Shown here in pieces: positions 1,994-32,000 of a stretch of 32,000 bases of DNA. How positions within the stretch are numbered: the stretch's first letter is position 1; every line of letters starts with the position of its first letter. The position numbers were made by a program, and so were the translations under genes. Source of the stretch: Candidatus Saccharimonadota bacterium (GTDB lineage Bacteria; Patescibacteriota; Saccharimonadia; Saccharimonadales; UBA4665); NCBI GenBank assembly GCA_016699935.1, contig CP064992.1:690001-722000 (forward strand), in the 5' to 3' direction. The notes below the pieces were generated by a model. The model saw only the letters and a list, made by a program, of their open reading frames with translations. It did no database searches and had not been told where the DNA came from.

Positions 1994-2437
1994 ATGCCTC
2001 GTCAATTGATCTCAAAAGAATGTAAACATTGCTGCCAGCAAAACATTACCTTCGTTGCTGGCACAGGCGGCTTCGACCAACACAACTCTTCCGGCACCTT
2101 CCAAGCAGGAACAGGTGCCGTCAGCTTGAATGGAGATACGACGGTAGCCAGTGGCAAGAACCTGACTGTCACCAGTGGTACTACGGCACTGACTGGTACC
2201 ACCAACATAAACACTTCAGGTGCAGCCACCACCAGCATCGGTACTGGCACTGGCAATAACAGCATTGGTAATACCACAGGTACTCTTGGCCTAACCGGTA
2301 GTACAGTCACGGTTGCAGGCACCACTAGTATTAATACAACCGGTACCGGTACGACTACCATTGGCTCAGTCACGGCTGGTGCCGTTAGCATTACTTCAAT
2401 GCAGCTAGTAGCTTCACGACTAATACCGGTGCTCTAA
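1994..2437 (+). CDS. Gene A fragment: Thr/Gly-rich fibre repeat (only ~2035-2398 is in the true frame)
   Basis: QNITFVAGTGGFDQ...TGAVSLNGDTTVASGKNLTVTSGTTALTGTTNINTSGAATTSIGTGTGNNSIGNTTGTLGLTGSTVTVAG. Duplicated at 3006-3395. The Met-proximal codons are an out-of-frame artefact. Confidence 0.65.
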   Translation: MPRQLISKECKHCCQQNITFVAGTGGFDQHNSSGTFQAGTGAVSLNGDTTVASGKNLTVTSGTTALTGTTNINTSGAATTSIGTGTGNNSIGNTTGTLGLTGSTVTVAGTTSINTTGTGTTTIGSVTAGAVSITSMQLVASRLIPVL

Positions 2438-2732: not shown

Positions 2733-3395
2733 CCAGTACTACACTGCTTTGTACTAATGCCGGTGTCATCTCTACCTGTGATGCCACAGTTGTTGCCCCA
2801 ACAGCTACTAACTTCATCAGAACCAAACAGCCTCCACCCAAACAGCTGGCTTCAAGATCGATGGTACTGGTACAGCCGGTACCTTAGTCGGTACGACTGC
2901 TGTCCAAGCCCGCTGTTTGACACCGCCACAGGCGTAGCTTTAAACATCGGTACCACCAATGCCACCCAGATTAACCTCAACAAAAACGTCAGTATTGCCG
3001 CCAACCAAAACATCACCTTCGTCGCCGGCACAGGCAACTTCGACCAATCAGCTAGCACCGGCACCTTCCAAACAGGAACAGGTGCCGTCAGCTTGAATGG
3101 AGATACGACAGTAGCCAGTGGCAAGAACCTGACTGTCACCAGTGGTACTACGGCACTGACCGGTACCACCAACATAAACACTTCAGGTGCTGCCACCACC
3201 AGCATCGGTACTGGCACTGGCAATAACAGCATTGGTAATACCACAGGTACCCTTGGCCTAACCGGTAGTACAGTCACGGTTGCAGGTAATACTAGTATTA
3301 ACACCACCGGTACCGGTACGACTACCATAGGCTCAGTCACAGCTGGTGCTGTTAGCATAACTTCAATGCTGCTAGTAGCATCACGACTAATACAG
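2733..3395. repeat. Composite internal duplicate in gene A: 2733-2981 matches 1-250, and 3006-3395 matches 2040-2430
   Basis: The strings match almost exactly (ccagtactacactgctttgtactaatgccggtgtcatctctacctgtgatgcc... at both 1 and 2733). The second unit lacks the ~1.75 kb beta-helix block that separates the two parts in the first unit. Confidence 0.85.
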
Positions 3396-3503
3396 GTAAC
3401 CTTACTCTTGACTCAGCAGCTGTACTGCAGCTGGGCGCTGCCAACGCCACAAGTATACTTATCGGTAAAACTGCTACTACGGCCACAGTCCAGGGCAGCT
3501 TGA
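2757..3503 (+). CDS. Gene A fragment (true frame only ~2905-3365): linker plus second copy of the Thr/Gly fibre repeat
   Basis: From SPLFDTATGVALNIGTTNATQINLNKNVSIAANQNITFVAGTGNFDQ... it parallels 181-250 and 2040-2398. The first ~50 and last ~45 codons are out-of-frame read-through. Confidence 0.55.
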   Translation: MPVSSLPVMPQLLPQQLLTSSEPNSLHPNSWLQDRWYWYSRYLSRYDCCPSPLFDTATGVALNIGTTNATQINLNKNVSIAANQNITFVAGTGNFDQSASTGTFQTGTGAVSLNGDTTVASGKNLTVTSGTTALTGTTNINTSGAATTSIGTGTGNNSIGNTTGTLGLTGSTVTVAGNTSINTTGTGTTTIGSVTAGAVSITSMLLVASRLIQVTLLLTQQLYCSWALPTPQVYLSVKLLLRPQSRAA

Positions 3504-4186: not shown

Positions 4187-5351
4187 TGGCAAATGGCAAG
4201 CAGATAGATCCGACGCCGTACTTGTAGCTGCCAGCAACTCCAGTGAAGCCGACAAAGCTGCAGCAGATTATGTAGCAACCGGTTCGGGTGACCAGACAAC
4301 TATCCAGAGTGCCCTCGATAGTGCCGACCCGTCTGCTGGCACTCGAAAAAGCGGCAAGGTCTTGCTTTTTGCCGGTACCTACACGGTGACAGACACTATC
4401 AACATACCCGACAACACCACATTGACTGGTGCTGGCCGGGGCAGCCTTATCCAATTTGGTAATATCGCTGGCCAAAACAAAAACATGATTCAAAATAAGA
4501 ATACAACGGCAAGTACTGGTCTTGTACTTCGCGATATCCGACTCGACGGTAACAAGGCAACAAACACAACTGGCACGCAGCATGGCGTATATCTGCTTTC
4601 ATCAACGTTCCCAGGCTCAGGGGCAGGTGCTCGTATCGGCTCAGTAGTCCAAAACGTATGGGTGAGCAACTTTAGATCTAACGGCATATATGTACATAAC
4701 CAGTCCGGCAATAGCAACATTAGTAATAACATGGTGCAAGACAACGCAGCTATCGGTATCGCCGTGCAATCCGCACACGCAAATAACGTTACAAACAACT
4801 ATGTTGTTGGTAATGCTACTGACGGCATATGGGTATCTGGCTCCAGCTACAACGTAATAAGTATGAATAACGTCAATTCCAATACAAACCGAGGAATAGT
4901 CGTCGACGGTAGCGCGAACAGCAACACAATCAACAGCAATGCTCTAAAAGACAACGGCACCGGAACTGAAGCTAGTATTCTAGTGTTAAATGCTGCAACG
5001 ACACTTATTTCCAATAACGCGATTACAGATAATACCGGCGCATCTGCTTACGCAATAGACATTGATCCAACTGCTACAAACGTGTATATAGCCAACAACT
5101 CTTTAGTGGGTACGGCGGTTACGAACGGTGTGAGAGATCAGGGTACAAATACGACAATAGGTGGCCAGCTGAATAATGTTATGGGTACAGGGTCGTATGT
5201 TATCCAAAACGCTGGAGGTGTATCAATAAGTAGTTCTAACAAAGCTGTTTCCAGCGCAGTAAGCATTCAAAGCGGTAATAGCACGGCTGGTACCGCTGCT
5301 ACTGTAAGCATAGATACTGGTACAAGTACTGGAGTGGTACAAGCAATATAA
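4080..5351 (+). CDS. Gene A fragment: junction motif plus second, divergent beta-helix cassette A2
   Basis: IGDTRTNINAIGSPTEGMMTYDTTNKQLLTYANGKWQADRS (nt 4092-4202, close to 292-402) is followed by a different set of rungs: LVLRDIRLDGN, VQNVWVSNFRSNG, NSNISNNMVQDN, NNVTNNYVVGN, YNVISMNNVNSN, NSNTINSNALKDN, TTLISNNAITDN. Confidence 0.85.
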   Translation: MCFIGDTRTNINAIGSPTEGMMTYDTTNKQLLTYANGKWQADRSDAVLVAASNSSEADKAAADYVATGSGDQTTIQSALDSADPSAGTRKSGKVLLFAGTYTVTDTINIPDNTTLTGAGRGSLIQFGNIAGQNKNMIQNKNTTASTGLVLRDIRLDGNKATNTTGTQHGVYLLSSTFPGSGAGARIGSVVQNVWVSNFRSNGIYVHNQSGNSNISNNMVQDNAAIGIAVQSAHANNVTNNYVVGNATDGIWVSGSSYNVISMNNVNSNTNRGIVVDGSANSNTINSNALKDNGTGTEASILVLNAATTLISNNAITDNTGASAYAIDIDPTATNVYIANNSLVGTAVTNGVRDQGTNTTIGGQLNNVMGTGSYVIQNAGGVSISSSNKAVSSAVSIQSGNSTAGTAATVSIDTGTSTGVVQAI

Positions 5352-5452
5352 ATATAGGCACAACAAACGCTGGGGCGGTAACAATCGGAAAAGCAGCTGG
5401 CACAACAGCAATAAACCTAAAATCTAGCACAATAAACGTTGGTATCGCTACG

Positions 5453-6901
5453 GTGGCAACGACTATTCAGGGTGTAACGCAGACTACAGCTGCAACAGCC
5501 GGTGCGGCACTTACTATTCAGGGTTCTACTGGCAATACAACTGGGGCAGGTGGCATTGTAACAATTGTGGGTGGAACGGGCGGTGCAACCAACGCCAACG
5601 GCGGTAACTTAGTGCTGAGTGGTGGCGCCAAAACTGGCGCAGGTACTCAGGGCTTGGTAACGATCTCCACGAGTGCATTTACATCTTCTACTACCCAAAG
5701 TTTCGGAAGCTCTGCAAGCCTTACGGCAGGCTTAGTCGATCAGTACAGTAGCATACCTGTAACCGCAACAGCGTCTGGAGTTACCGTAACTATACCTGCG
5801 CCAGCTGCTGTAAACCAAGTAGTTGGTAGATTGCTATATGTCGCAAACGTGGGCGTAACAAACGACTTCAACATTTTATTAACTGGCACAAGCGTAACTG
5901 TGGCGCTCAAACCGAATAGTACGGCAACACTTATATGGAATGGCAACGGCTGGACGGCAGCTGGCGCATCGAGTGCGACTGACCTTCAGGCTGCTTATAA
6001 CAACACACAGACGAGTGCTGGTGGGGCGGAAATTGTTCTTAGATCTACCCTTGATACGCCAACGGGCACGGGAGGATTAACCATTCGAAATAATGACACG
6101 CTACCAATTTCTGGCGGGTTGCTCGAAATACAAAGTTCTATTGGCACAAACCTCTTTAGCGTCAACGGCTATGGTAGTGAGTTAGCTGCCAATGGTGGCG
6201 CAGAAACAAAGGGTGTCAGCGACATCACCTTCCCAGCAAGTACTTGGAGTAGCCAGAACACTGGTGCTGTTAGCCGTACGATAACTTCTGGGGAATTCCA
6301 AACGGGTATTGCTGGAGTAAAGATTGGCACCACAGGCTCCAACCAGGGTGCACGCAACCAGTTGACAGCCAACCCAGTCGCGAGCACCACCTACACGGTG
6401 TCATTCACGGCGGCGTCTAGCACAGCTGGCACAGGCACCACACCTATAGAAGTCATCTACTCACCCGATAACGGTACGACCCTTACCAACCTATGCCAAG
6501 GATACGGCAATGGTTTTACAAACTCTCGTACGATTTCCAACTACACAACAGTCAACTGGACGAAGGTGACATGTACCGTTACTACGACCGGTGCGGCCGT
6601 AACGACACCGCTACTCATCATCCGTCAAACAGATGCTACTACCCGGACTATTTACGTCGATAACCTCAGTATGATCCGTAACGATGCAACAACACGGCCA
6701 TCCAGTGTCCAAATCGGCGGCGGCAACACTGGTGGCCAGGTAACACTCTTTACCTTTGACCGATCCAGCGCGGCCCCGCTTGTGTCTGGTAGTGATGATC
6801 GTTATCTCGGCTCTATGTATTACGACACGACACTTGGCAACATCAATGTTACGAAGCCGATGGTTGGGGAGCTTGTGGTAGTGCGCCAGATAATATCGTG
6901 A
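5453..6901 (+). CDS. Gene A fragment: Gly/Thr spacer, CBM4/9 (CenC)-like carbohydrate-binding-type module, junction motif
   Basis: ELAANGGAETKG...STWSSQNTGAVSRTITSGEFQTG...TTYTVSFTAAS...VNWTKVTCTVTT...RTIYVDNLSM (~6145-6675) follows the pattern of CBM_4_9 modules. It ends ...GSMYYDTTLG at a slip. Confidence 0.85.
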   Translation: MATTIQGVTQTTAATAGAALTIQGSTGNTTGAGGIVTIVGGTGGATNANGGNLVLSGGAKTGAGTQGLVTISTSAFTSSTTQSFGSSASLTAGLVDQYSSIPVTATASGVTVTIPAPAAVNQVVGRLLYVANVGVTNDFNILLTGTSVTVALKPNSTATLIWNGNGWTAAGASSATDLQAAYNNTQTSAGGAEIVLRSTLDTPTGTGGLTIRNNDTLPISGGLLEIQSSIGTNLFSVNGYGSELAANGGAETKGVSDITFPASTWSSQNTGAVSRTITSGEFQTGIAGVKIGTTGSNQGARNQLTANPVASTTYTVSFTAASSTAGTGTTPIEVIYSPDNGTTLTNLCQGYGNGFTNSRTISNYTTVNWTKVTCTVTTTGAAVTTPLLIIRQTDATTRTIYVDNLSMIRNDATTRPSSVQIGGGNTGGQVTLFTFDRSSAAPLVSGSDDRYLGSMYYDTTLGNINVTKPMVGELVVVRQIIS

Positions 6902-9183: not shown

Positions 9184-11679
9184 ATGGGTGAAAAATATCT
9201 GGCGAAAACTATGGCGGCAAGCAAACAGACTAGAAAAAAAATGTCTTGCTACATTTGCAAAACCTATAGCACGCAAGCTATACTACTTGCGGCCCAAGCG
9301 CAGGAAGCATCCTATGCTTGCCAGGATGGGATGGGGAGCGATGGCTGGGCTTATGCTGGTTACTGCAAATATCGATGTTGTCAACTTGCATCAAAAAATG
9401 TCGCTTACGGTCTAACGCCACAAGCTGAACAACTGCTTAGTTCACCAAAAACAACATACGGTGAAAGACTGAAGCTAGATACTAAAAAGGGTATCTACAA
9501 TTACAATCAAGGATTTCAAGTTGGTATAGGCGTGGATGGTCAGTTGAGTGGTCCAAGGTTTACCGCATCATTTGCGGTTGACCCAGCCAAGGGTACAACT
9601 GTTACCGATGCCGGTAAAGATGTCAGCGTGACGTTCACACCCAATTTCAAACTTGAACAGCCGAGGCAAAAAGACAACCGTTTGGTATACCCAGTTACGG
9701 GCACCACTGCCCAAAAAGTATATACGTTACGTGCTGCTAGCGTGAAGGAAGACATAATTTTCAACACCTATCAGGGAGACACGGCGGAGTTTGCTTACAA
9801 GCTCGATATGGCAGCTGGTACAGAAGCGAGGATGGAATCGAACGGTGCTTTGTCGATATATGGTGTAGATTCAACAATGCTTGGTAAGGTTTCGACGGGT
9901 TCAGAAAAGGATCAAGCACTACTAGAGAGCGCTCGCAAAAATGGTGAAAAGAATCTGCTACTTTTCACTTTCCCAGCGCCGTTTATCCGTGAAAGCGGTA
10001 AAAAGACCAGTCATGCAAAAGCTTGGTATAGTCTAAATGACAACGTCTTGACAATCCACGCTTCCAATTTAAAAGCCGCAAGCTATCCACTCAGTATTGA
10101 CCCGACAGTATATGTTGAAACGGCGCGCAAACTGATGCGGGGAAACAACGAATCAAATATCGACTTTGATGTCGACAATGAGCTGATCCAAAAAAGCCAA
10201 ACGACTGGCGCGCGTATCGATGCCTGGAACAATAACGGTGATCTTGACTACGCACTATGGGATCAAGGGACTGCCGTAGCAGGAGGATACATATATTCTG
10301 TCGGTGGACAGGAAGTATACAAAAAAGTATTCAACACTCAGGGGGCAGCCACCTTCAAGGTGCCGACAGGTGTCAGCTCGATTACGACCAAAATGTGGGG
10401 GGCGGGTGCTGGTGGCGGTGCTGGCGGGGCATCGGTAGCTGGCGGAACTGGTGGCGGTGCTGGCTATTTGTCGGCAACAGTAACAGTCAGTGCTGGAGAA
10501 ACCCTCAATTTGTACGTGGGTGGAGCTGGAAATGGCGGAGCGTACAGTGCAGCGGGTGTTGACGCAGGTGGCGGTGGCTCAGGTGGTGGTTTTTCTAGCT
10601 TGTATCGTAGTGCGACGCCATTAGTGATAGCAGCAGCCGGTGGTGCCGGTGGCGGCGGTCGAAACGCAACAGCCGGTGGTGCTGGTGGCGGTGGCGGTAC
10701 AGACACAGGCAACGGAGTTGCGGGTACAACTGTTGGAAATGGTGGCGGAGGCGGTGGTGCTACCACTGGTGGATCTCCAGCAGCAGGAACTGGTGGATCA
10801 GGTGGAAACAACGGTGGCTCAGCTGGTGCATCGCTGGCTGGTGGCGCAGGAGCGGATGGTCGTACAGGCAGTGTCGACGGTAGTGGCGTGGCGGGTGGTC
10901 TTACTTCGGGAGGGGCAGGTGGCTTGGCAAATCAAAATATTACTCGTCCTGGTGGTGGTGGTGGCGGTGGCGGTTACTATGGTGGTGGCGGTGGTGGCTC
11001 GACCACGAGTGCCAATGGCAATGCTGGTGGTGGCGGTGGCGGTGGCGGTGGGTATGCAAATACGGGTGCAGGCGTAACAGTTACCGCTCGAAACGTTGGT
11101 GCTGGCACAACGCCTGGCAACTCAGCCGACAGTGATCGAAATGGTGCTGGTACAGGAGGCACGGGTGGTACGGCTACAAATAGCGGAAGCGCTGGGTCAA
11201 ATGGAATAATCATCATAACCTATACGGTATCTGGTAATAGCACAGCCACAACAACGCGGGTTGCATGGGCACAATTCAACACCACTACAAACGTCATAGA
11301 AAGTCCAAATCCTGGTAACGGTGCTTGTACCGGTTGGTGCAATAATAGCGTCTACGATTTACCGCAAGCTCGAAACGGCTTCACGCTAGTAACCTATAAT
11401 GGCTTTTTATACGTCATGGGTGGTACGGACTCAAATACGGGAGGTACCTGCAGTGGTGCCCAAAAAGCCTGTACTACCGTTTATATTGCCAAACTTGGAG
11501 CAAATGGCGAGCCGCAGCTTTGGCATCCGACCGATACCAACAAAAATAACTGGGTATATTGGTATAGCGACACGGCGCTGGTGGTAGTACAGACGGCAGA
11601 AGCTATTTATGGTGCGGCCGCCTACAATAACCGCATGTATTTGCTAGGCGGAAAAACAAATGCAGCAGGGGAGGCGTGA
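9184..11679 (+). CDS. Gene B fragment 1: N-terminal domain, first blade, glycine-rich (polyglycine) domain, two blades
   Basis: ...ASYPLSIDPTVYVE ends the N-terminal domain. Then come GGYIYSVGGQ and FKVPTGVSSITTKMWGAGAGGGAGG...GGGGGGGGYYGGGGGG...GSNGIIIITY (10354-11225), followed by FLYVMGGT and MYLLGGK. The true N-terminus probably passes through the 8924-9415 frame (MLARMGWGAMAGLMLVTANI, 9314-9395) via slips in the A8 run (9234-9241) and A6 run (9393-9398). Confidence 0.85.
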   Translation: MGEKYLAKTMAASKQTRKKMSCYICKTYSTQAILLAAQAQEASYACQDGMGSDGWAYAGYCKYRCCQLASKNVAYGLTPQAEQLLSSPKTTYGERLKLDTKKGIYNYNQGFQVGIGVDGQLSGPRFTASFAVDPAKGTTVTDAGKDVSVTFTPNFKLEQPRQKDNRLVYPVTGTTAQKVYTLRAASVKEDIIFNTYQGDTAEFAYKLDMAAGTEARMESNGALSIYGVDSTMLGKVSTGSEKDQALLESARKNGEKNLLLFTFPAPFIRESGKKTSHAKAWYSLNDNVLTIHASNLKAASYPLSIDPTVYVETARKLMRGNNESNIDFDVDNELIQKSQTTGARIDAWNNNGDLDYALWDQGTAVAGGYIYSVGGQEVYKKVFNTQGAATFKVPTGVSSITTKMWGAGAGGGAGGASVAGGTGGGAGYLSATVTVSAGETLNLYVGGAGNGGAYSAAGVDAGGGGSGGGFSSLYRSATPLVIAAAGGAGGGGRNATAGGAGGGGGTDTGNGVAGTTVGNGGGGGGATTGGSPAAGTGGSGGNNGGSAGASLAGGAGADGRTGSVDGSGVAGGLTSGGAGGLANQNITRPGGGGGGGGYYGGGGGGSTTSANGNAGGGGGGGGGYANTGAGVTVTARNVGAGTTPGNSADSDRNGAGTGGTGGTATNSGSAGSNGIIIITYTVSGNSTATTTRVAWAQFNTTTNVIESPNPGNGACTGWCNNSVYDLPQARNGFTLVTYNGFLYVMGGTDSNTGGTCSGAQKACTTVYIAKLGANGEPQLWHPTDTNKNNWVYWYSDTALVVVQTAEAIYGAAAYNNRMYLLGGKTNAAGEA

Positions 11680-12122
11680 CCACTGTGGAGGTAGCGGACG
11701 TACGACCAAATGGCACTCTCGGTAGCTGGTCGACTTCTGGTATGCAAGTACTACCTTCTGTACGTCACGGTCACACGGTGCATATTTATAATGACACCAT
11801 GTATCTGATAGGGGGTAACAGCAACGGCACCCTGCAAAGCTCAGTTTATTACAGCAAACTAAATAGCGACGGCACAATGAACGGCTGGACTTTGACCAGT
11901 GGTTTTAGCACGTATGGGGCACGCACAACCCAAGGTGGCAGTTTTAGTACGGTGTGGGGAGCCTATATTTATTTAGCAGGCGGCTGTAGTACCGTAAATG
12001 GTAGCGGTTATTGCACGGTAGTGGAAAGCGATACGATATTAGCCAGCATTAACGCCGATGGCAGCTTGGCAGAGTGGAATAGCATAAACAACCTGACGGT
12101 AGTCGATCTGGATATAATTTGA
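11676..12122 (+). CDS. Gene B fragment 2: Kelch-type blades
   Basis: MYLIGGN and IYLAGGC, with W/G spacing typical of propeller blades. Confidence 0.75.
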   Translation: MTTVEVADVRPNGTLGSWSTSGMQVLPSVRHGHTVHIYNDTMYLIGGNSNGTLQSSVYYSKLNSDGTMNGWTLTSGFSTYGARTTQGGSFSTVWGAYIYLAGGCSTVNGSGYCTVVESDTILASINADGSLAEWNSINNLTVVDLDII

Positions 12123-23442: not shown

Positions 23443-23485
23443 CCAAAACCACCGGGTACGACCCATATCGACAGGGTCGTACCCG
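23443..23485. repeat. REP hairpin, left copy
   Basis: ccaaaaccacc-GGGTACGACCC-atatcgaca-GGGTCGTACCC-g: an 11-bp perfect stem with a 9-nt loop. Confidence 0.85.
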
Positions 23486-23516
23486 CTCGGTTGACAGGGT
23501 GGTGTATTATGGTGAT

Positions 23517-24138
23517 ATGCCATCACGTAATATCTATAAAGAATATGTCGAACAGACGTACTATCATGTCTACAACCGAGGCGTGAACAAAGAAAGAACG
23601 GATATTTCTCGATGAACAAGATTACCTGACGTTTATTGCTCTCATCGAACGCTATATGGGTCTGCGGGCTAGTAGGCGGCAAAATGGCAGTAAATATGAA
23701 AACTTTGACGGTAGATTAGACATTTTGGCCTATTGTCTTATGCCAAATCATTTTCACTTTTTTATATATCAGTACGATGAAAAAGCTATGTATGAGTTTT
23801 TCAAACGGATCACGGTATCATACAGTATGTACTTCAATGAACGCTATAAGCGAGTTGGCCCAGTCTTTCAGCAGCGATATCGCGCATCGCTAATCTATTC
23901 GGACGAGTATTTTTTGCATATTTCCCGCTATATTCATCTCAATCCCCGTGAATGGGCTAGCTAATGGTGGTCGAGTATACATGACTATACAGGTCATAGT
24001 ATTACGACTTGGGTACATCCAGAAAAAGTTCTAGAACATTTCAATGACGGGGCAAAGGAATATACTGAGTTCGTTGCCGACTATGAATCAGCTCACCGCG
24101 AGCTAGAACACATACAACACATTCTGGCTGATCGCTAA
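23517..24138 (+). CDS. REP-associated tyrosine transposase (RAYT, IS200-like Y1/HUH family), with one slip (~23590) and one in-frame TAA (23962-23964)
   Basis: MPSRNIYKEYVEQTYYHVYNRGVNKE | RIFLDEQDYLTFIALIERY...LDILAYCLMPNHFHFFIYQ (HUH motif) ...YSMYFNERYKRVGPVFQQRYRASLIYSDEYFLHISRYIHLNP (catalytic Tyr context) REWAS*WWSSIHDYTG...HILADR. The ORF-track pieces are 23433-23615 and 23656-23964. Confidence 0.75.
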
Positions 24139-24164
24139 TACCAAGGTACTGCAATTAAACCAAC

Positions 24165-24207
24165 CGGGTACGACCCTGTCGATATGGGTCGTACCCGGTG
24201 GTTTTGG
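24165..24207. repeat. REP hairpin, right copy (inverted)
   Basis: c-GGGTACGACCC-tgtcgatat-GGGTCGTACCC-ggtggttttgg, the exact reverse complement of 23443-23485. Confidence 0.85.
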
Positions 24208-24404
24208 AGTAGCAAAGACAGTAAAGTTAGATGTTTCTGTGGATAACTGGGGTAAAATGTACATGTTGAGCAAATAATGTGTACAAAAACTATTGCATTC
24301 TATTTTGCATAAGCGCATACTAGCAAATAGATTTTGTCCACGTCACGAAAATTAAAAAGACGAAAAGGCAAAATCACTAACAAAAACAAAAACGTTTCCA
24401 AACG

Positions 24405-24435
24405 AAAAGCAGGCACTCTCGCAAGGCCTGCTTTT
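24405..24435. terminator. Bidirectional rho-independent terminator-like hairpin
   Basis: aaaagcaggc-actctcgcaag-gcctgctttt. It lies ~50 nt downstream of the minus-strand ORF that ends at 24488. Confidence 0.6.
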
Positions 24436-24487
24436 GATTTGGGCAAAGGTAATAAAGACAGAAATATGTTTACGCGTCAGTAGAAAC

Positions 24488-24847
24488 TCAGACTGGCAAG
24501 CTTCGTATTTGCGTGGTTTGAAGCCTGCGATTCTTGTCAATATTGGTTACGCTAGCTTTTAAACCTTGCCAATAAAAATGGACCTTTTTCGCGTTGCTAA
24601 AGACGGAGCGAAGTAGCGCAAAAGGGCAAGGTCGATCGATTATTGCTGCCAGGAACGATCTTGTGTGATAAAGATCACTACAAATAAGTAAAATCAAAGC
24701 AAAGAGCGCAGAAACACTATTCAAATATGACAAATCTGATGGTGCAACTTCTGGCTTGAGCATGATTGCTATAAGGCTGGCTTTCGATTCAGCTTGGCTT
24801 TCATCATAATGTCGCACAACTATCGTAATCGCACCTCGATTGTACAA
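24488..24847 (-). CDS. Hypothetical protein (TTG start), function unknown
   Basis: A 119-codon ORF followed by the 24405-24435 hairpin, with one hydrophobic stretch (VSALFALILLICS). I recognise no motif, and slips may distort the frame. Confidence 0.35.
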   Translation of the reverse strand: MYNRGAITIVVRHYDESQAESKASLIAIMLKPEVAPSDLSYLNSVSALFALILLICSDLYHTRSFLAAIIDRPCPFALLRSVFSNAKKVHFYWQGLKASVTNIDKNRRLQTTQIRSLPV

Positions 24848-25104: not shown

Positions 25105-25865
25105 ATGGCGTTTATCATCGCTATAACCAATCAAAAGGGAGGAGTCGGCAAAACAACGACAGCTGTAAATATAGCCGCTCAACTGGCAACGAATAAGCGC
25201 CGGGTGCTTTTGGTTGACCTCGATCCTCAGGGTAATGCTACTAGTAGCCTGGGTATCGACAAAGCAGCTTTGCCGGCAACATTGTACGACGTACTAGTTG
25301 GCGATAGCACCGTGGCAAAGATAGTCCTACCGACAAAAGTAGCAAATCTTTTCATATTGCCAGCAAATAGTAGCCTGGTTCAGGCCGAAGTTGATTTAGT
25401 AAGTATGACGCAGCGTGAGTTTCGGCTAAAAGACAAGCTGGCTAATGTTGACGCAGATATCATAATCATTGATTGTCCGCCAGCACTTGGTCTGCTGACT
25501 GTCAATGCTCTTACTGCCGCAAATGGCGTTCTCATACCTGTGCAGTCAGAATATTTTGCCCTAGAGGGACTAAGTGAACTCATGAATACGATTCGGTTGG
25601 TGCGAGGTGGTTTGAATCCAGATCTCGACCTGTTTGGTGTCGTCCTGACGATGTTCAATAAGCGCACCGTGCTAAGTGAGCAAGTTTTGGCAGAAGTAAG
25701 ACAGCATTTTGGCGAAAAGTTTTCAAAACTGTCATACCTCGAAATGTCCGTCTGGCTGAAGCGCCAAGTTATGGAAAGACCATCTTTGAGCATGATAAAT
25801 GGAGCAAAGGTGCGAGGGCGTACAAAGCACTAGCTCAGGAGGTAGCAAAACGTGGCAGCTTCTAA
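25105..25865 (+). CDS. parA: ParA/Soj chromosome-partitioning ATPase (slip in A-run 25715-25718)
   Basis: Deviant Walker A (KGGVGKTT), DLDPQGNAT and IIIDCPP. After GEK the next frame gives the canonical tail VFKTVIPRNVRLAEAPSYGKTIFEHDKWSKGARAYKALAQEVAKRGSF. An RBS (ggaagaggg) precedes the ATG. Confidence 0.9.
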
Positions 25866-26762: not shown

Positions 26763-27406
26763 TTAGAACCGTTTTATGGCATTTAAGGGGAGGATTCTAG
26801 CAACCAACTTGCCTACAACCTGATCGGTTTGAATGGGCCCAAATCGGCGTGAATCAAGTGATTGTGGGCGGTTATCGCCACATACGAATAGTTCCGTATC
26901 TGAAAGCGTAATGTCGACATTATCGGTTGTCGGCGGTATGGCGTACTCTTTGCCGTACGGCAGAGTTGTGTCTGGCTGGAAGCCTTGAGGATGTTCTTTG
27001 GTATAGACGGTGACCACATTGTCTTTTATGACCACATGCTCGCCCGGAAGGCCAATCACGCGCTTCACCAGCTTTTTCATCAACTCCGCCGCTGTAATTT
27101 GCCAGACCTGATTCATGTAAAATGATAATATCACCCCTGTTGGGAACATACTGATGACCAGTTATTTTTGACCAGGTGCGGGCGAGCTTCCATACGATCA
27201 GGCGATCATTATGTTGTAAGGTGGATTCCATACTCGGCCCATCTACTTGGTAAGATTGAAAACAAACAAGGTCAGAAAAATTGCGATAACTGGGGCGAGT
27301 AGCAGTATACCTATAGTAGAAAGTATATCGCGAAGACCACGTGACTCCTGGGGCTAGACGATTCAGACGATTCAGTCTCTGTTACGAAAGGATCCTGTTT
27401 TTCCAT
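26763..27406 (-). CDS. lepB: Signal peptidase I, reconstructed across ~4 slips
   Basis: TM segment ILSTIGILLLAPVIAIFLTLFVF | QSYQVDGPSMESTL (catalytic Ser box) ...NRGDIII | ...KRVIGLPGEHV (catalytic Lys box) ...FVCGDNRPQSLDSRRFGPI (box E). The ORF-track pieces are 26920-27231 and 26763-27149. Confidence 0.8.
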
Positions 27407-29880: not shown

Positions 29881-31097
29881 ATGATACAAAGGAGGTTTAT
29901 GGACTTACAATCAAAAACGCAATCAACAAATAGTGTGTCTAAGGCTAACTTGCTTACAAAGATTCTGATTGGGCTTATAATCATGGCAATTAGCTTTGGT
30001 GGTGGGTGGCTTGGTGCCGCAAGTCAGGGTAGGGATAGCAATTCACGGGTTATTGCCGAGCAAAAAACAGCTGTTGCAAGTACGGCTAACCTGGTTAGTT
30101 CTATTGCTGGAACTGTTGGTGAAAGCGTTGTGTCGGTCAATGTAACTTCACAATCTGGCGGCTCAACCTACGGCGGCTTTTTTGGATTCGGCTACGGTCC
30201 GTATACACAAGAAAGTGCCGGCACAGGGGTGATACTGAGCTCGGATGGGCTCATACTGACAAATCGACATGTGGTGCCTACCGGTACAACTGAGGTCAGC
30301 GTCACGCTCAGTGACGGAACGGTGCTCGAAAAGGTAAAGTGATTGCCCGCACGAATGCGCGTGACAGCCTTGATATTGCATTCCTGAAAGTTGAGGATAA
30401 TGAAGGCAAGAAGCTTGTTGCTGCCAAACTGGGCGACTCGAGCAAGATGAAAGTGGGTGACGCGGTTGTTGCCATCGGTAATACGCTCGGCCAGTTCCAA
30501 AACACCGTGACAAGTGGCATAATTTCTGGCTATGGTAGAAGTCTTATAGCTGGAGACGGATCTGGGGATCAAGCTGAAAACCTTGATGATATGTTTCAGA
30601 CAGATGCAGCAATAAACCAAGGCAATTCAGGCGGACCGCTCGTTAATATGAATGGCGAAGTTATCGGCATCAACACTGCTATCGCAAGCGATGCGCAAAC
30701 AGTTGGCTTTGCCATACCTATCAACAATGTGAAAGGCCTTATCGATAATGTGAAAAAAAGCGGCAAGCTCGAGAGGCCATATCTTGGCGTTGTCTATGTG
30801 ATGGTCACCGATGATATCGCGAAAGAGTATAACCTTGGTGCTACCAGGGGAGCATACATTCCCAAAGCAGAAGATATGGGCAGCGATACTATCCTGAAAG
30901 ATGGCCCTGCAGCGGCCGCCGACATACAAGAGGGTGATGTAATAACTAAGATAGATGGTGTAGAAATTAACGAAAAATCGAGCTTACTTTCGGTCCTAAG
31001 CAAACATAAATCGGGTGATAGTGTTGAGCTGACCATACTACGCGGAAACGATACAAAAATAATTAGCGTAAAACTTGGCACCGCGCCAGCAAGCTAA
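29881..31097 (+). CDS. htrA: HtrA/DegP-like trypsin-fold serine protease with C-terminal PDZ domain (slip in A-run 30329-30332)
   Basis: N-terminal TM segment. Catalytic triad contexts: LTNRHVV (His), DIAFLKV (Asp), GNSGGPL (Ser). PDZ-like tail: YLGVVYV...GDVITKIDGVEIN...GDSVELTILRG. Fragments 29881-30342 and 30339-31097 join as LEK|GKVIARTN. An alternative start at 29899 follows AAAGGAGG. Confidence 0.85.
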
Positions 31098-31277: not shown

Positions 31278-32000
31278 CTAGGTCGAGTAAAGCTGTGCGA
31301 GTCCGTCAGTGGTGGTTAGCGAATAGCCGGTACCTTGGGCAATTGTAGCAAGGCTGGAATGCTGTTCGAGTAAAGACTCGGTAATTATGCATTTCACTTG
31401 GTGCTCTTTTGCCTGCACAAAGAGTGCACGGTAGTAGTCCAGTCCATCGGCTCCACCGTACAGTGCGCTGCGAGGTTCATGCGCCGCGGCTCTGTTGATT
31501 GGGTATGCATCTGGTACGTAGGGAAGGTTGGCAAGAATGATAGAATTTTGCATTATGAACTTTGAATTTGGGATATGAGCAAGTAAATCTGCACGGAGGA
31601 AGGTGATATTTGCGGATAGTTTTAGGGCGTTTTGTTTAGCCACCTCTAAGCAGGCTGGGTCGATGTCGGTTGCAAGTACGGTGCTGTTCGGTAGCTCAAG
31701 CTTTGAGGTAATTGCAAGCGCACCCGAGCCCGTCCCAATATCGATAATCGTGATTTCGGAGTGGTGCTTTGTGGATGCTACGAGAAGCGTAATCATGCTT
31801 TCAGACTCGGGGCGGGGTACTAGCACATGTTCATTGACCACAAATTCTCGGCCATAAAACTCAACCTTACCGCGGATGTACGCTAGCGGGATATGCTGTA
31901 TTCTTTGAGCAATCTTTTTATGCAAACTTTTCAATTCCGACCTCTGTAATTCGTACTCAGGGTGCGCCAAAACCCAGGCTTTATCCCGTCCCAGCATATC
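31278..32000 (-). CDS. prmC: Release-factor glutamine N5-methyltransferase PrmC/HemK, 5' end probably beyond window
   Basis: VLVPRPESE, SAM-binding IIDIGTGSGALAI, and the catalytic NLPYV (an NPPY variant). The reading frame is still open at the window edge (..DMLGRDKAWVLAHPE), a segment that normally lies ~40 residues into PrmC. Confidence 0.85.
   Translation of the reverse strand, partial: DMLGRDKAWVLAHPEYELQRSELKSLHKKIAQRIQHIPLAYIRGKVEFYGREFVVNEHVLVPRPESESMITLLVASTKHHSEITIIDIGTGSGALAITSKLELPNSTVLATDIDPACLEVAKQNALKLSANITFLRADLLAHIPNSKFIMQNSIILANLPYVPDAYPINRAAAHEPRSALYGGADGLDYYRALFVQAKEHQVKCIITESLLEQHSSLATIAQGTGYSLTTTDGLAQLYST

Follow-up and report, generated by a model that had tools for sequence, protein, structure and literature searches.

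A probable REP-RAYT-type module in a Saccharibacteria genome: a Y1 nuclease gene bracketed by mirror-image palindromes

The 32,000-nucleotide stretch analysed here (the window) belongs to the genome of a member of Saccharibacteria (TM7), Candidatus Saccharimonadota bacterium (assembly GCA_016699935.1, contig CP064992.1, positions 690,001 to 722,000), and carries between two palindromic arms a gene for a HUH/Y1 nuclease, with its ATG at 23517 and its stop codon at 24136-24138 (Table 1). From the sequence alone, the locus had been proposed to be a complete unit of a REP-associated tyrosine transposase (RAYT) and its repetitive extragenic palindromic (REP) sequences. Based on the fold, motifs, hairpins, flank association, covariation, synteny and loose copies described below, we consider it probable that the unit is a REP-RAYT-type module, composed of a nuclease of ~205 aa and its palindromes.

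The two arms form a 50-nt inverted repeat that is complementary at 48/50 positions, with positions 1-43 exact and the mismatches at positions 44 and 46, such that the exact 43-nt reverse complements of the original prediction stand within longer arms. The predicted 11-bp stem with a 9-nt loop was likewise found in both, as each arm folds as GGGTACGACCC-N9-GGGTCGTACCC, and the loops ATATCGACA and TGTCGATAT are themselves mutual reverse complements. This pattern occurs twice in the window against none expected from 100 shuffles, even when 3 mismatches are allowed. Folding energies of the arms as single-stranded DNA ranged from -16.6 to -20.9 kcal/mol with z-scores of -6 to -7 (left arm -16.6 kcal/mol, z -6.1; right arm -20.5 kcal/mol, z -7.0), and the bases adjoining the core are CACC/GGTG. 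The palindromes of the window are one doublet per side, in mirror orientation and similar to REPINs (REP doublets forming hairpins). The doublet of the left element was also found upstream of the intact gene of locus L099, the closest homologue of the window gene (75% amino acid identity), and L099 comes from an independent short-read assembly of a relative, which speaks against the hairpins being an artefact of reads.

The gene product is a single-domain HUH/Y1 nuclease with a C-terminal helical extension. Translation bore out the two motifs named earlier, NHFHF (HUH) and SRYIHLNP (Y), of which both His of the former and R-Y-x-H-x-N-P of the latter are invariant in 61 homologues. The frame-corrected protein matched the Pfam family Y1_Tnp (PF01797) with 32.5 bits (cut-off 23), its sole NCBIfam match was REP_Tyr_transpos (NF047646, 42.3 bits), and no match to the IS200/IS605 profile (NF033573) was obtained at E<=1. 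All 61 aligned family members matched REP_Tyr_transpos (best E 6.4e-14), which was their only family apart from a single match to the IS200/IS605 model (1/61, E 0.004). The homologue search gave thousands of proteins of ~204 aa, with E <= 0.001 for 7909 of 8000 scored candidates; the best matches listed were 45-75% identical to the window protein, mostly about 50%, and all the named ones belonged to Saccharibacteria or Saccharimonadales. The unit is not an oddity of one reduced genome and represents a Saccharibacteria-wide family instead. Searched by sequence, the PDB chains offered no more than a marginal hit, to ISDra2 TnpA in the region of the HUH motif (E 0.24), and a fold comparison was needed. 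The AlphaFold2 model of the family, built on the homologue P0001 (75% identical to the window protein), had a pLDDT of 92.3, and its best match was chain 4er8_A of the E. coli RAYT-REP complex (E 6.5e-7, TM 0.61), followed in Foldseek by the TnpA proteins of ISDra2, ISHp608 and IS200 (E 6e-5 to 1e-3). The HUH motif, the F/W-Q-x-R-Y/F motif, the tyrosine helix and the C-terminal W/F-S-S/T motif are collinear between the family and E. coli RayT, where HFH aligns with HMH and SRYIHLNP with DYIYINP. Taken from these profiles and the modelled fold, the family appears to be a Y1 nuclease closer to RAYTs than to IS200 transposases, which supports the original assignment.

These results also bear on another explanation, in which hairpins and gene together (765 bp) would be an IS200-like insertion sequence (IS) that is autonomous and transposes as a whole, with the hairpins as its left and right ends. 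Its size of about 0.7 kb, the single Y1 transposase and the subterminal hairpins, a layout resembling that of IS200, and the very name of the Pfam family ('Transposase IS200 like') speak for such an element, but the NCBIfam matches of the family fall to the RAYT model rather than to IS200/IS605, and the two ends are one sequence inverted rather than distinct left and right ends. Together with the evidence on copy number and gene neighbourhood given below, this makes an insertion sequence an unlikely explanation.

The flanks were compared across 80 metagenomic loci that encode homologues (L-numbers). Up to 120 nt from the gene, a total of 18.8 kb, there were 125 palindromes of the class N6-GG-N5-CC-N6' (6.66 per kb), but only 38 in the remaining 597 kb (0.064 per kb), besides one inside the genes, which is a 100-fold enrichment beside the gene. 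Of the 78 loci whose flanks were long enough, 47 had the same sequence in the upstream and the downstream hairpin. Compensatory changes were observed in 7/9 stem pairs, whereas G7, G8, C14 and C15 were invariant. RAYT proteins that share a common core type were 55.4% identical as against 50.4%, a difference reached in 0/2000 permutations. Most flanking elements are single near-perfect palindromes that are asymmetric only at the central base, and window-like doublets were present in L034, L073, L093 and the closest relative L099. Across the family the hairpins lie at fixed short spacing from the start and stop codons, and the bulk of the palindromes have a T-rich start and an A-rich end. REPs of E. 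coli and Pseudomonas carry a conserved GTAG-type 5' tetranucleotide beside the hairpin. No family-wide tetranucleotide of this kind was found among the Saccharibacteria hairpins, where some relatives have CTAC...GTAG and others TTAA, CTCA/TGAG or TATA, and the recognition features are likely the invariant GG-N5-CC hairpin top and a lineage-specific lower stem.

Two conserved gene neighbourhoods were delineated. In the first, parA lies beside the RAYT gene (window, L019, L023, L024, L045 and L088), accompanied by parB and lytR in L019, L023 and L045, while the homology reaches htrA in L023 and L045 and prmC in L023; the identities here are about 45-50% for RAYT, 56-61% for ParA and 40-49% for LytR. 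The spacer downstream of the window gene is matched by L099. The second is pilB<-RAYT->recA, with a divergent pilB/gspE-type ATPase gene on one side and on the other recA, which shares the strand of the RAYT-like gene and follows it after about 150 nt. It comprises 15 loci, ten with both neighbours (L032, L044, L063, L064, L067, L071, L074, L079, L086 and L091) and five in which the pilB side only was seen (L085, L089, L094, L096 and L098), with identities of 59-80% for RAYT, 67-79% for PilB and 85-95% for RecA and all genes intact. The suggestion that the element may be newly arrived proved wrong, as the same parA-adjacent site is occupied in relatives whose protein is about 50% identical. 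The cassette is directed away from parA in L019, L023, L024 and L045 and towards it in the window and L088; with these two orientations at one site, the cassette must have inverted in place, as expected between inverted repeats.

A downstream neighbour of ~345 aa, present in many loci and at first sight TnpB-like, turned out to be RecA, and an upstream neighbour of ~605 aa is a PilB/GspE-type ATPase. None of the ten neighbours inspected, by eye only, looks like TnpB; they include recA, pilB and other genes, so that the tnpB companion of an ordinary IS200/IS605 TnpA was not encountered among them, and in the synteny group of the window the neighbour is parA. No near-identical second copy of the gene occurs within +-10 kb in the 80 loci (about 600 kb of flanks), and a diverged paralogue was present in two of the 80 (45% and 28% identity; L019 and L070). 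In L019 the two genes stand in tandem, and the paralogue (45% identity to the window protein) has another palindrome, of the GGGTGCCACCC type, in front of it, which suggests that a single genome can harbour more than one type of RAYT and palindrome. Collections of plasmids and phages yielded only distant relatives, in 14/72,556 plasmids and 1 phage. The tandem pair of L019 and the fact that gene neighbours differ between clades could be taken in favour of an IS200-like element, but no near-identical duplicates were found in these flanks, and in each of two independent neighbourhoods the syntenic position has been kept while the proteins diverged by roughly 50%. Such a pattern, syntenic and with few or no further copies in the flanks, on plasmids or in phages, is the housekeeping-like behaviour by which RAYTs are told apart from IS elements (Bertels et al. 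2017, PMC5581495), and as part of the REP-RAYT reading the gene is probably vertically inherited and host-resident rather than a hopping insertion sequence.

Away from the gene, an exact-doublet scan of 185,579 species-representative genomes returned 18 stretches, of which 12 were in 6 Saccharibacteria metagenome-assembled genomes (MAGs) with 1-3 per genome. These 12 doublets have loops of 7-13 nt and lineage-specific outer stems, and no RAYT homologue was found near them within the 8-kb locus. Besides, extra palindromes were located kilobases from the gene in L020, L023, L029, L030, L033, L057, L063 and L069, and loose single palindromes in the related loci amount to up to about 0.06 per kb, a figure in which some unrelated palindromes are counted. 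The density in relatives is above chance but low, as of a dispersed repeat with very few copies; that the palindrome occurs loose, without the gene, is a further point against an IS200-like unit. The loose doublets are in part extragenic, between or behind genes, and some lie between convergent genes.

Housekeeping genes contain about half of the loose copies, in frame with the coding sequence; the identity of these genes was assigned by NCBIfam (Table 1). These host genes are intact and the inserts encode short peptides such as RVRP...GRTR, while the prmC of the window itself (31278-32000, minus strand) has no palindrome insert. In rsmA, the elements of L004 and L012 are identical at 41/41 nt in flanks that are only about 65% identical. 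At one site in mutY (L020:357-377 and L029:1998-2018) the central triplet is exactly flipped, ACG in one and CGT in the other, and L029 has an additional insert in this gene that L020 lacks. The rsmA identity and the mutY flip suggest replacement, homogenisation or flipping rather than passive decay, and both observations fit ongoing activity in relatives. From this we put forward, tentatively and at rather less than even confidence, that Saccharibacteria possess a phylum-wide, vertically inherited RAYT-like nuclease whose few cognate palindromes in ~1-Mb genomes colonise essential genes in frame and, at orthologous sites, stay identical or are cleanly flipped as the host gene diverges. If true, this would imply ongoing enzyme-driven replacement or homogenisation resembling that of Rickettsia palindromic elements (RPE), with an identifiable enzyme and in a genetically tractable lineage.

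Doublets of GGGTACGACCC with an extra G/C pair were also seen in other phyla, in an Omnitrophota MAG (L011:6806-6835), in frame inside a 615-aa open reading frame (ORF), and in a Nealsonbacteria MAG (L014:4767-4802). No RAYT homologue was found in the 8-kb loci L011 and L014.

The loose copies also help to weigh the explanation that the palindromes are cis-regulatory or terminator-type elements (operators, insulators or mRNA stabilisers) of a domesticated nuclease gene and not mobilised substrates, with the similar palindromes elsewhere being unrelated host signals. The fixed short distances from start and stop codons would suit such a role, as would the loose copies between convergent genes and the weak terminator-like tail GGTGGTTTTGG that follows on the outward-facing side of the window hairpin. 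However, the T-rich start and A-rich end of the palindromes are the wrong polarity for intrinsic terminators, and the copies in frame in valS, ileS, rsmA, prmC, mutY and recX are placed where a terminator would be harmful. Close relatives moreover vary in presence and absence and have the central triplet flipped at the same site, and the protein whose structure matches best was crystallised with just such a hairpin. A regulatory or terminator role in place of mobilisation is hence improbable.

The copy of the gene in the window carries two lesions. The slip noted earlier is indeed a change of frame, though not of the homopolymer type, as the alignment of GTGAACAAAGAAAGAACGG with GTTAAC----AAAGAACGC of L099 identified a 4-nt AAAG tandem duplication that accounts exactly for 622 nt against 618 nt and adds a residue absent from 14/14 aligned homologues. 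The in-frame TAA that had been pointed out was also found, at a codon for Tyr or Trp in all these homologues, and the suggestion that the gene may be inactive is supported. A programmed frameshift at AAAGAAAG was considered and rejected, as the homologues are unshifted and lack the extra residue.

The alternative that the gene is intact and active, with the frameshift and the TAA being consensus errors of a noisy long-read assembly, has to be weighed seriously. Frameshifts also affect no fewer than three housekeeping genes lying within 6 kb (parA, htrA and a minus-strand gene near 27100). Outside the lesions the ORF is fully conserved and retains every catalytic motif, and the arms are still identical over 43 nt. 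As the frameshifts of parA and htrA are 1-nt homopolymer deletions, the assembly of the window appears to be error-prone and probably long-read. On the other hand, the net gain of 4 nt (AAAG) is opposite in sign and type to these deletions, the TAA requires a C/T-to-A substitution outside any homopolymer, and two independent lesions fall within 618 nt. Because the lesions, a +4 duplication and a transversion, differ in kind from the parA and htrA deletions, we lean towards a recent and true inactivation of the window gene, and assembly error is the less likely of the two, at about one chance in three.

If the REP-RAYT reading is correct, the mode of action can be sketched by analogy with E. 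coli TnpA-REP and with the IS200/IS605 TnpA proteins of IS608 and ISDra2, on whose model hairpin binding, cleavage and mobilisation are proposed here. Wherever DNA is single-stranded, as at replication forks, the protein would bind its palindromes in their hairpin form and would cut beside the hairpin, where the tyrosine would form a covalent 5'-phosphotyrosyl intermediate before the DNA is rejoined. Such cutting and rejoining could copy, flip or replace palindromes and would leave the gene itself in place, and the mirror-image doublets may permit inversion of the cassette by recombination between the arms.

Several observations weigh against this reading. The 42.3 bits of the window protein do not reach the 80-bit equivalog cut-off of NF047646, P0001 scores 39.9 bits, and the best E-value of the family implies that the other members are below the cut-off too; the profile comparison of the family with E. 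coli RayT is weak (E 0.016, about 25% identity over 80 columns). Because of this sub-cut-off score and weak comparison, the family is set apart as a distant group of its own and not a curated RAYT. For the covariation count a hairpin finder had selected the hairpins, which makes the figure of 96% paired partly circular. The inverted arrangement is not a conserved rule across the family, as 21 of the 47 flank pairs are inverted and 26 direct, the two being about equally common because only the central base of the palindrome is asymmetric. No third copy of the core or of the half-element exists in the 32-kb window, as the original prediction had stated for the REP, and the number of about 1-3 exact doublets per related genome is far below classical REP populations. 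Lastly, in a noisy assembly either lesion of the RAYT gene could be an error.

Compared with known RAYT/TnpA-REP systems (E. coli RayT, 4er8; Pseudomonas RAYT-REPIN), the Saccharibacteria unit shares the Y1 HUH fold with one catalytic tyrosine in a (R/D)Y-I-x-x-N-P helix and an extension at the C-terminus, hairpin palindromes on both sides of the gene (REPIN-like doublets in the window), loose palindrome copies elsewhere in related genomes, and a chromosomal, syntenic and probably vertical inheritance with no near-identical gene duplicates in the flanks covered. These shared features correspond to the criteria of Bertels et al. 2017 (PMC5581495). The differences are a protein of about 205 aa instead of the 165 aa of E. 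coli RayT and below the NCBIfam equivalog cut-off; near-perfect palindromes with a 3-5-nt loop, an invariant GG-N5-CC and no consistent GTAG-type 5' tetranucleotide; units to perhaps tens of palindromes per ~1-Mb genome instead of tens to hundreds; loose copies that in roughly half of the cases are intragenic and in frame instead of extragenic; and a candidate-phyla-radiation host with a reduced genome. The unit appears to work like a REP-RAYT module and has most of the family-defining features, but fails the curated sequence cut-off. With the TnpA of IS200/IS605 elements (IS200, IS608, ISDra2) it has in common the Y1_Tnp superfamily and fold, the IS200-like unit size and, presumably, recognition of hairpins on single-stranded DNA. 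It differs from them by a longer protein, a profile matched by one member only, identical ends in the window, no tnpB seen, no multicopy behaviour and conserved synteny.

Another parallel is offered by the RPE, which Ogata and colleagues reportedly found in 2000 to be inserted in frame in protein-coding genes of Rickettsia. Both are short palindromic repeats in the reduced genome of an obligately host-associated bacterium and both give in-frame peptide inserts in housekeeping proteins. The Saccharibacteria inserts are much shorter (about 24-75 nt), and a candidate cognate enzyme is encoded beside two copies of the element, whereas no enzyme is known to have been assigned to RPEs. Among the papers searched, none connects Saccharibacteria or other members of the candidate phyla radiation with RAYTs or REPs; a large Y1 survey (PMC6006769) does not mention these phyla, nor does a paper on Saccharibacteria genetics (PMC10633639) mention the RAYT-like gene.

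The role of RAYTs in their hosts, and the reason for their long persistence as single-copy genes, is an open question, and syntenic retention across a whole lineage with extremely streamlined episymbiotic genomes of ~1 Mb argues strongly for a host-level function or an unusually stable truce between parasite and host. With so small a palindrome population, each copy can be followed individually. By their position inside genes, the in-frame copies take 'extragenic' palindromes into coding sequence and may supply variation of protein loops in the candidate phyla radiation. In Saccharibacteria MAGs, the palindromes together with the broken gene copy can also indicate how good an assembly is and whether the cassette has inverted.

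Table 1. Coordinates of features in the window and, where an L-number is given, in related loci
Feature	Location	Strand	Remarks
Left flanking element	23443-23492	.	palindromic doublet, 50 nt, two inverted GGGTACGACCC cores; core hairpin 23454-23484, 9-nt loop
Right flanking element	24158-24207	.	reverse complement of left element; core hairpin 24166-24196
RAYT-like Y1 (HUH) nuclease gene	23517-24138	+	622 nt (intact orthologue 618 nt); frameshift and nonsense codon
HUH motif codons (His-Phe-His of NHFHF)	23748-23756	+	from translation; both His invariant in 61 homologues
Presumed catalytic tyrosine codon (SRYIHLNP)	23929-23931	+	from translation; R-Y-x-H-x-N-P invariant in 61 homologues
AAAG-AAAG tandem duplication, frame +1	23589-23596	+	DNA alignment with L099
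In-frame TAA replacing conserved Tyr	23962-23964	+	TAC (Tyr) in L099; Tyr or Trp in 14/14 aligned homologues
Perfect DnaA box TTATCCACA	24238-24246	-	RAYT-parA spacer; conserved in L099; sole perfect box in window
Frameshift in parA	25707-25722		1-nt deletion in A/T homopolymer
Frameshift in htrA-like protease gene	~30336-30342		1-nt deletion in A/T homopolymer; split into 29881-30342 and 30339-31097
Frame change in minus-strand gene	~27088-27116	-	
Frameshift-split Kelch-repeat gene	11676		parts 9184-11679 and 11676-12122
In-frame palindrome, ValS	L003:7217-7251		
In-frame palindrome, IleS	L013:944-975		
In-frame palindrome, RsmA	L004:5987-6019; L012:1109-1141		
In-frame palindrome, RluB-like pseudouridine synthase	L001:4727-4755		
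In-frame palindromes, MutY-like glycosylase	L020:357-377; L029:1836-1856 and 1998-2018		
In-frame palindrome, RecX	L063:12729-12749		
In-frame palindromes, PrmC	L023:2554-2640 and 2982-3047; L005:531-562; L008:1056-1087		two sites in L023
RAYT-like genes in loci with a diverged second paralogue	L019:4126-4728 and 5074-5682; L070:14493-14984		tandem in L019

Apart from these, a few other features of the window were recorded. A replication origin beside parAB was considered in view of the DnaA box and rejected, since boxes with <=1 mismatch number 6 against 7.65 expected and form no cluster. Between the left hairpin and the ATG, TTGACA (23491-23496) and TATTAT (23505-23510) are conserved in L099, but as they are spaced by only 8 nt they probably do not form a sigma-70 promoter, and the promoter scan found none in this interval. 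No Rfam family at gathering score and no tRNA was detected in the window. The cassette is separated from a minus-strand ORF of 119 aa (24488-24847) by what resembles a bidirectional terminator at 24398-24442, a hairpin with a 17-bp stem and a T-rich tail on either strand, whose sequence is also conserved in L099. At the left end of the window, the 21-mer GGTACTGGTACAGCCGGTACC occurs at 132-152 and again, identical, at 2863-2883 inside the ORF 2757-3503, in a region of NosD/beta-helix surface-protein genes, and this repeat probably reflects paralogous repeats among these genes.

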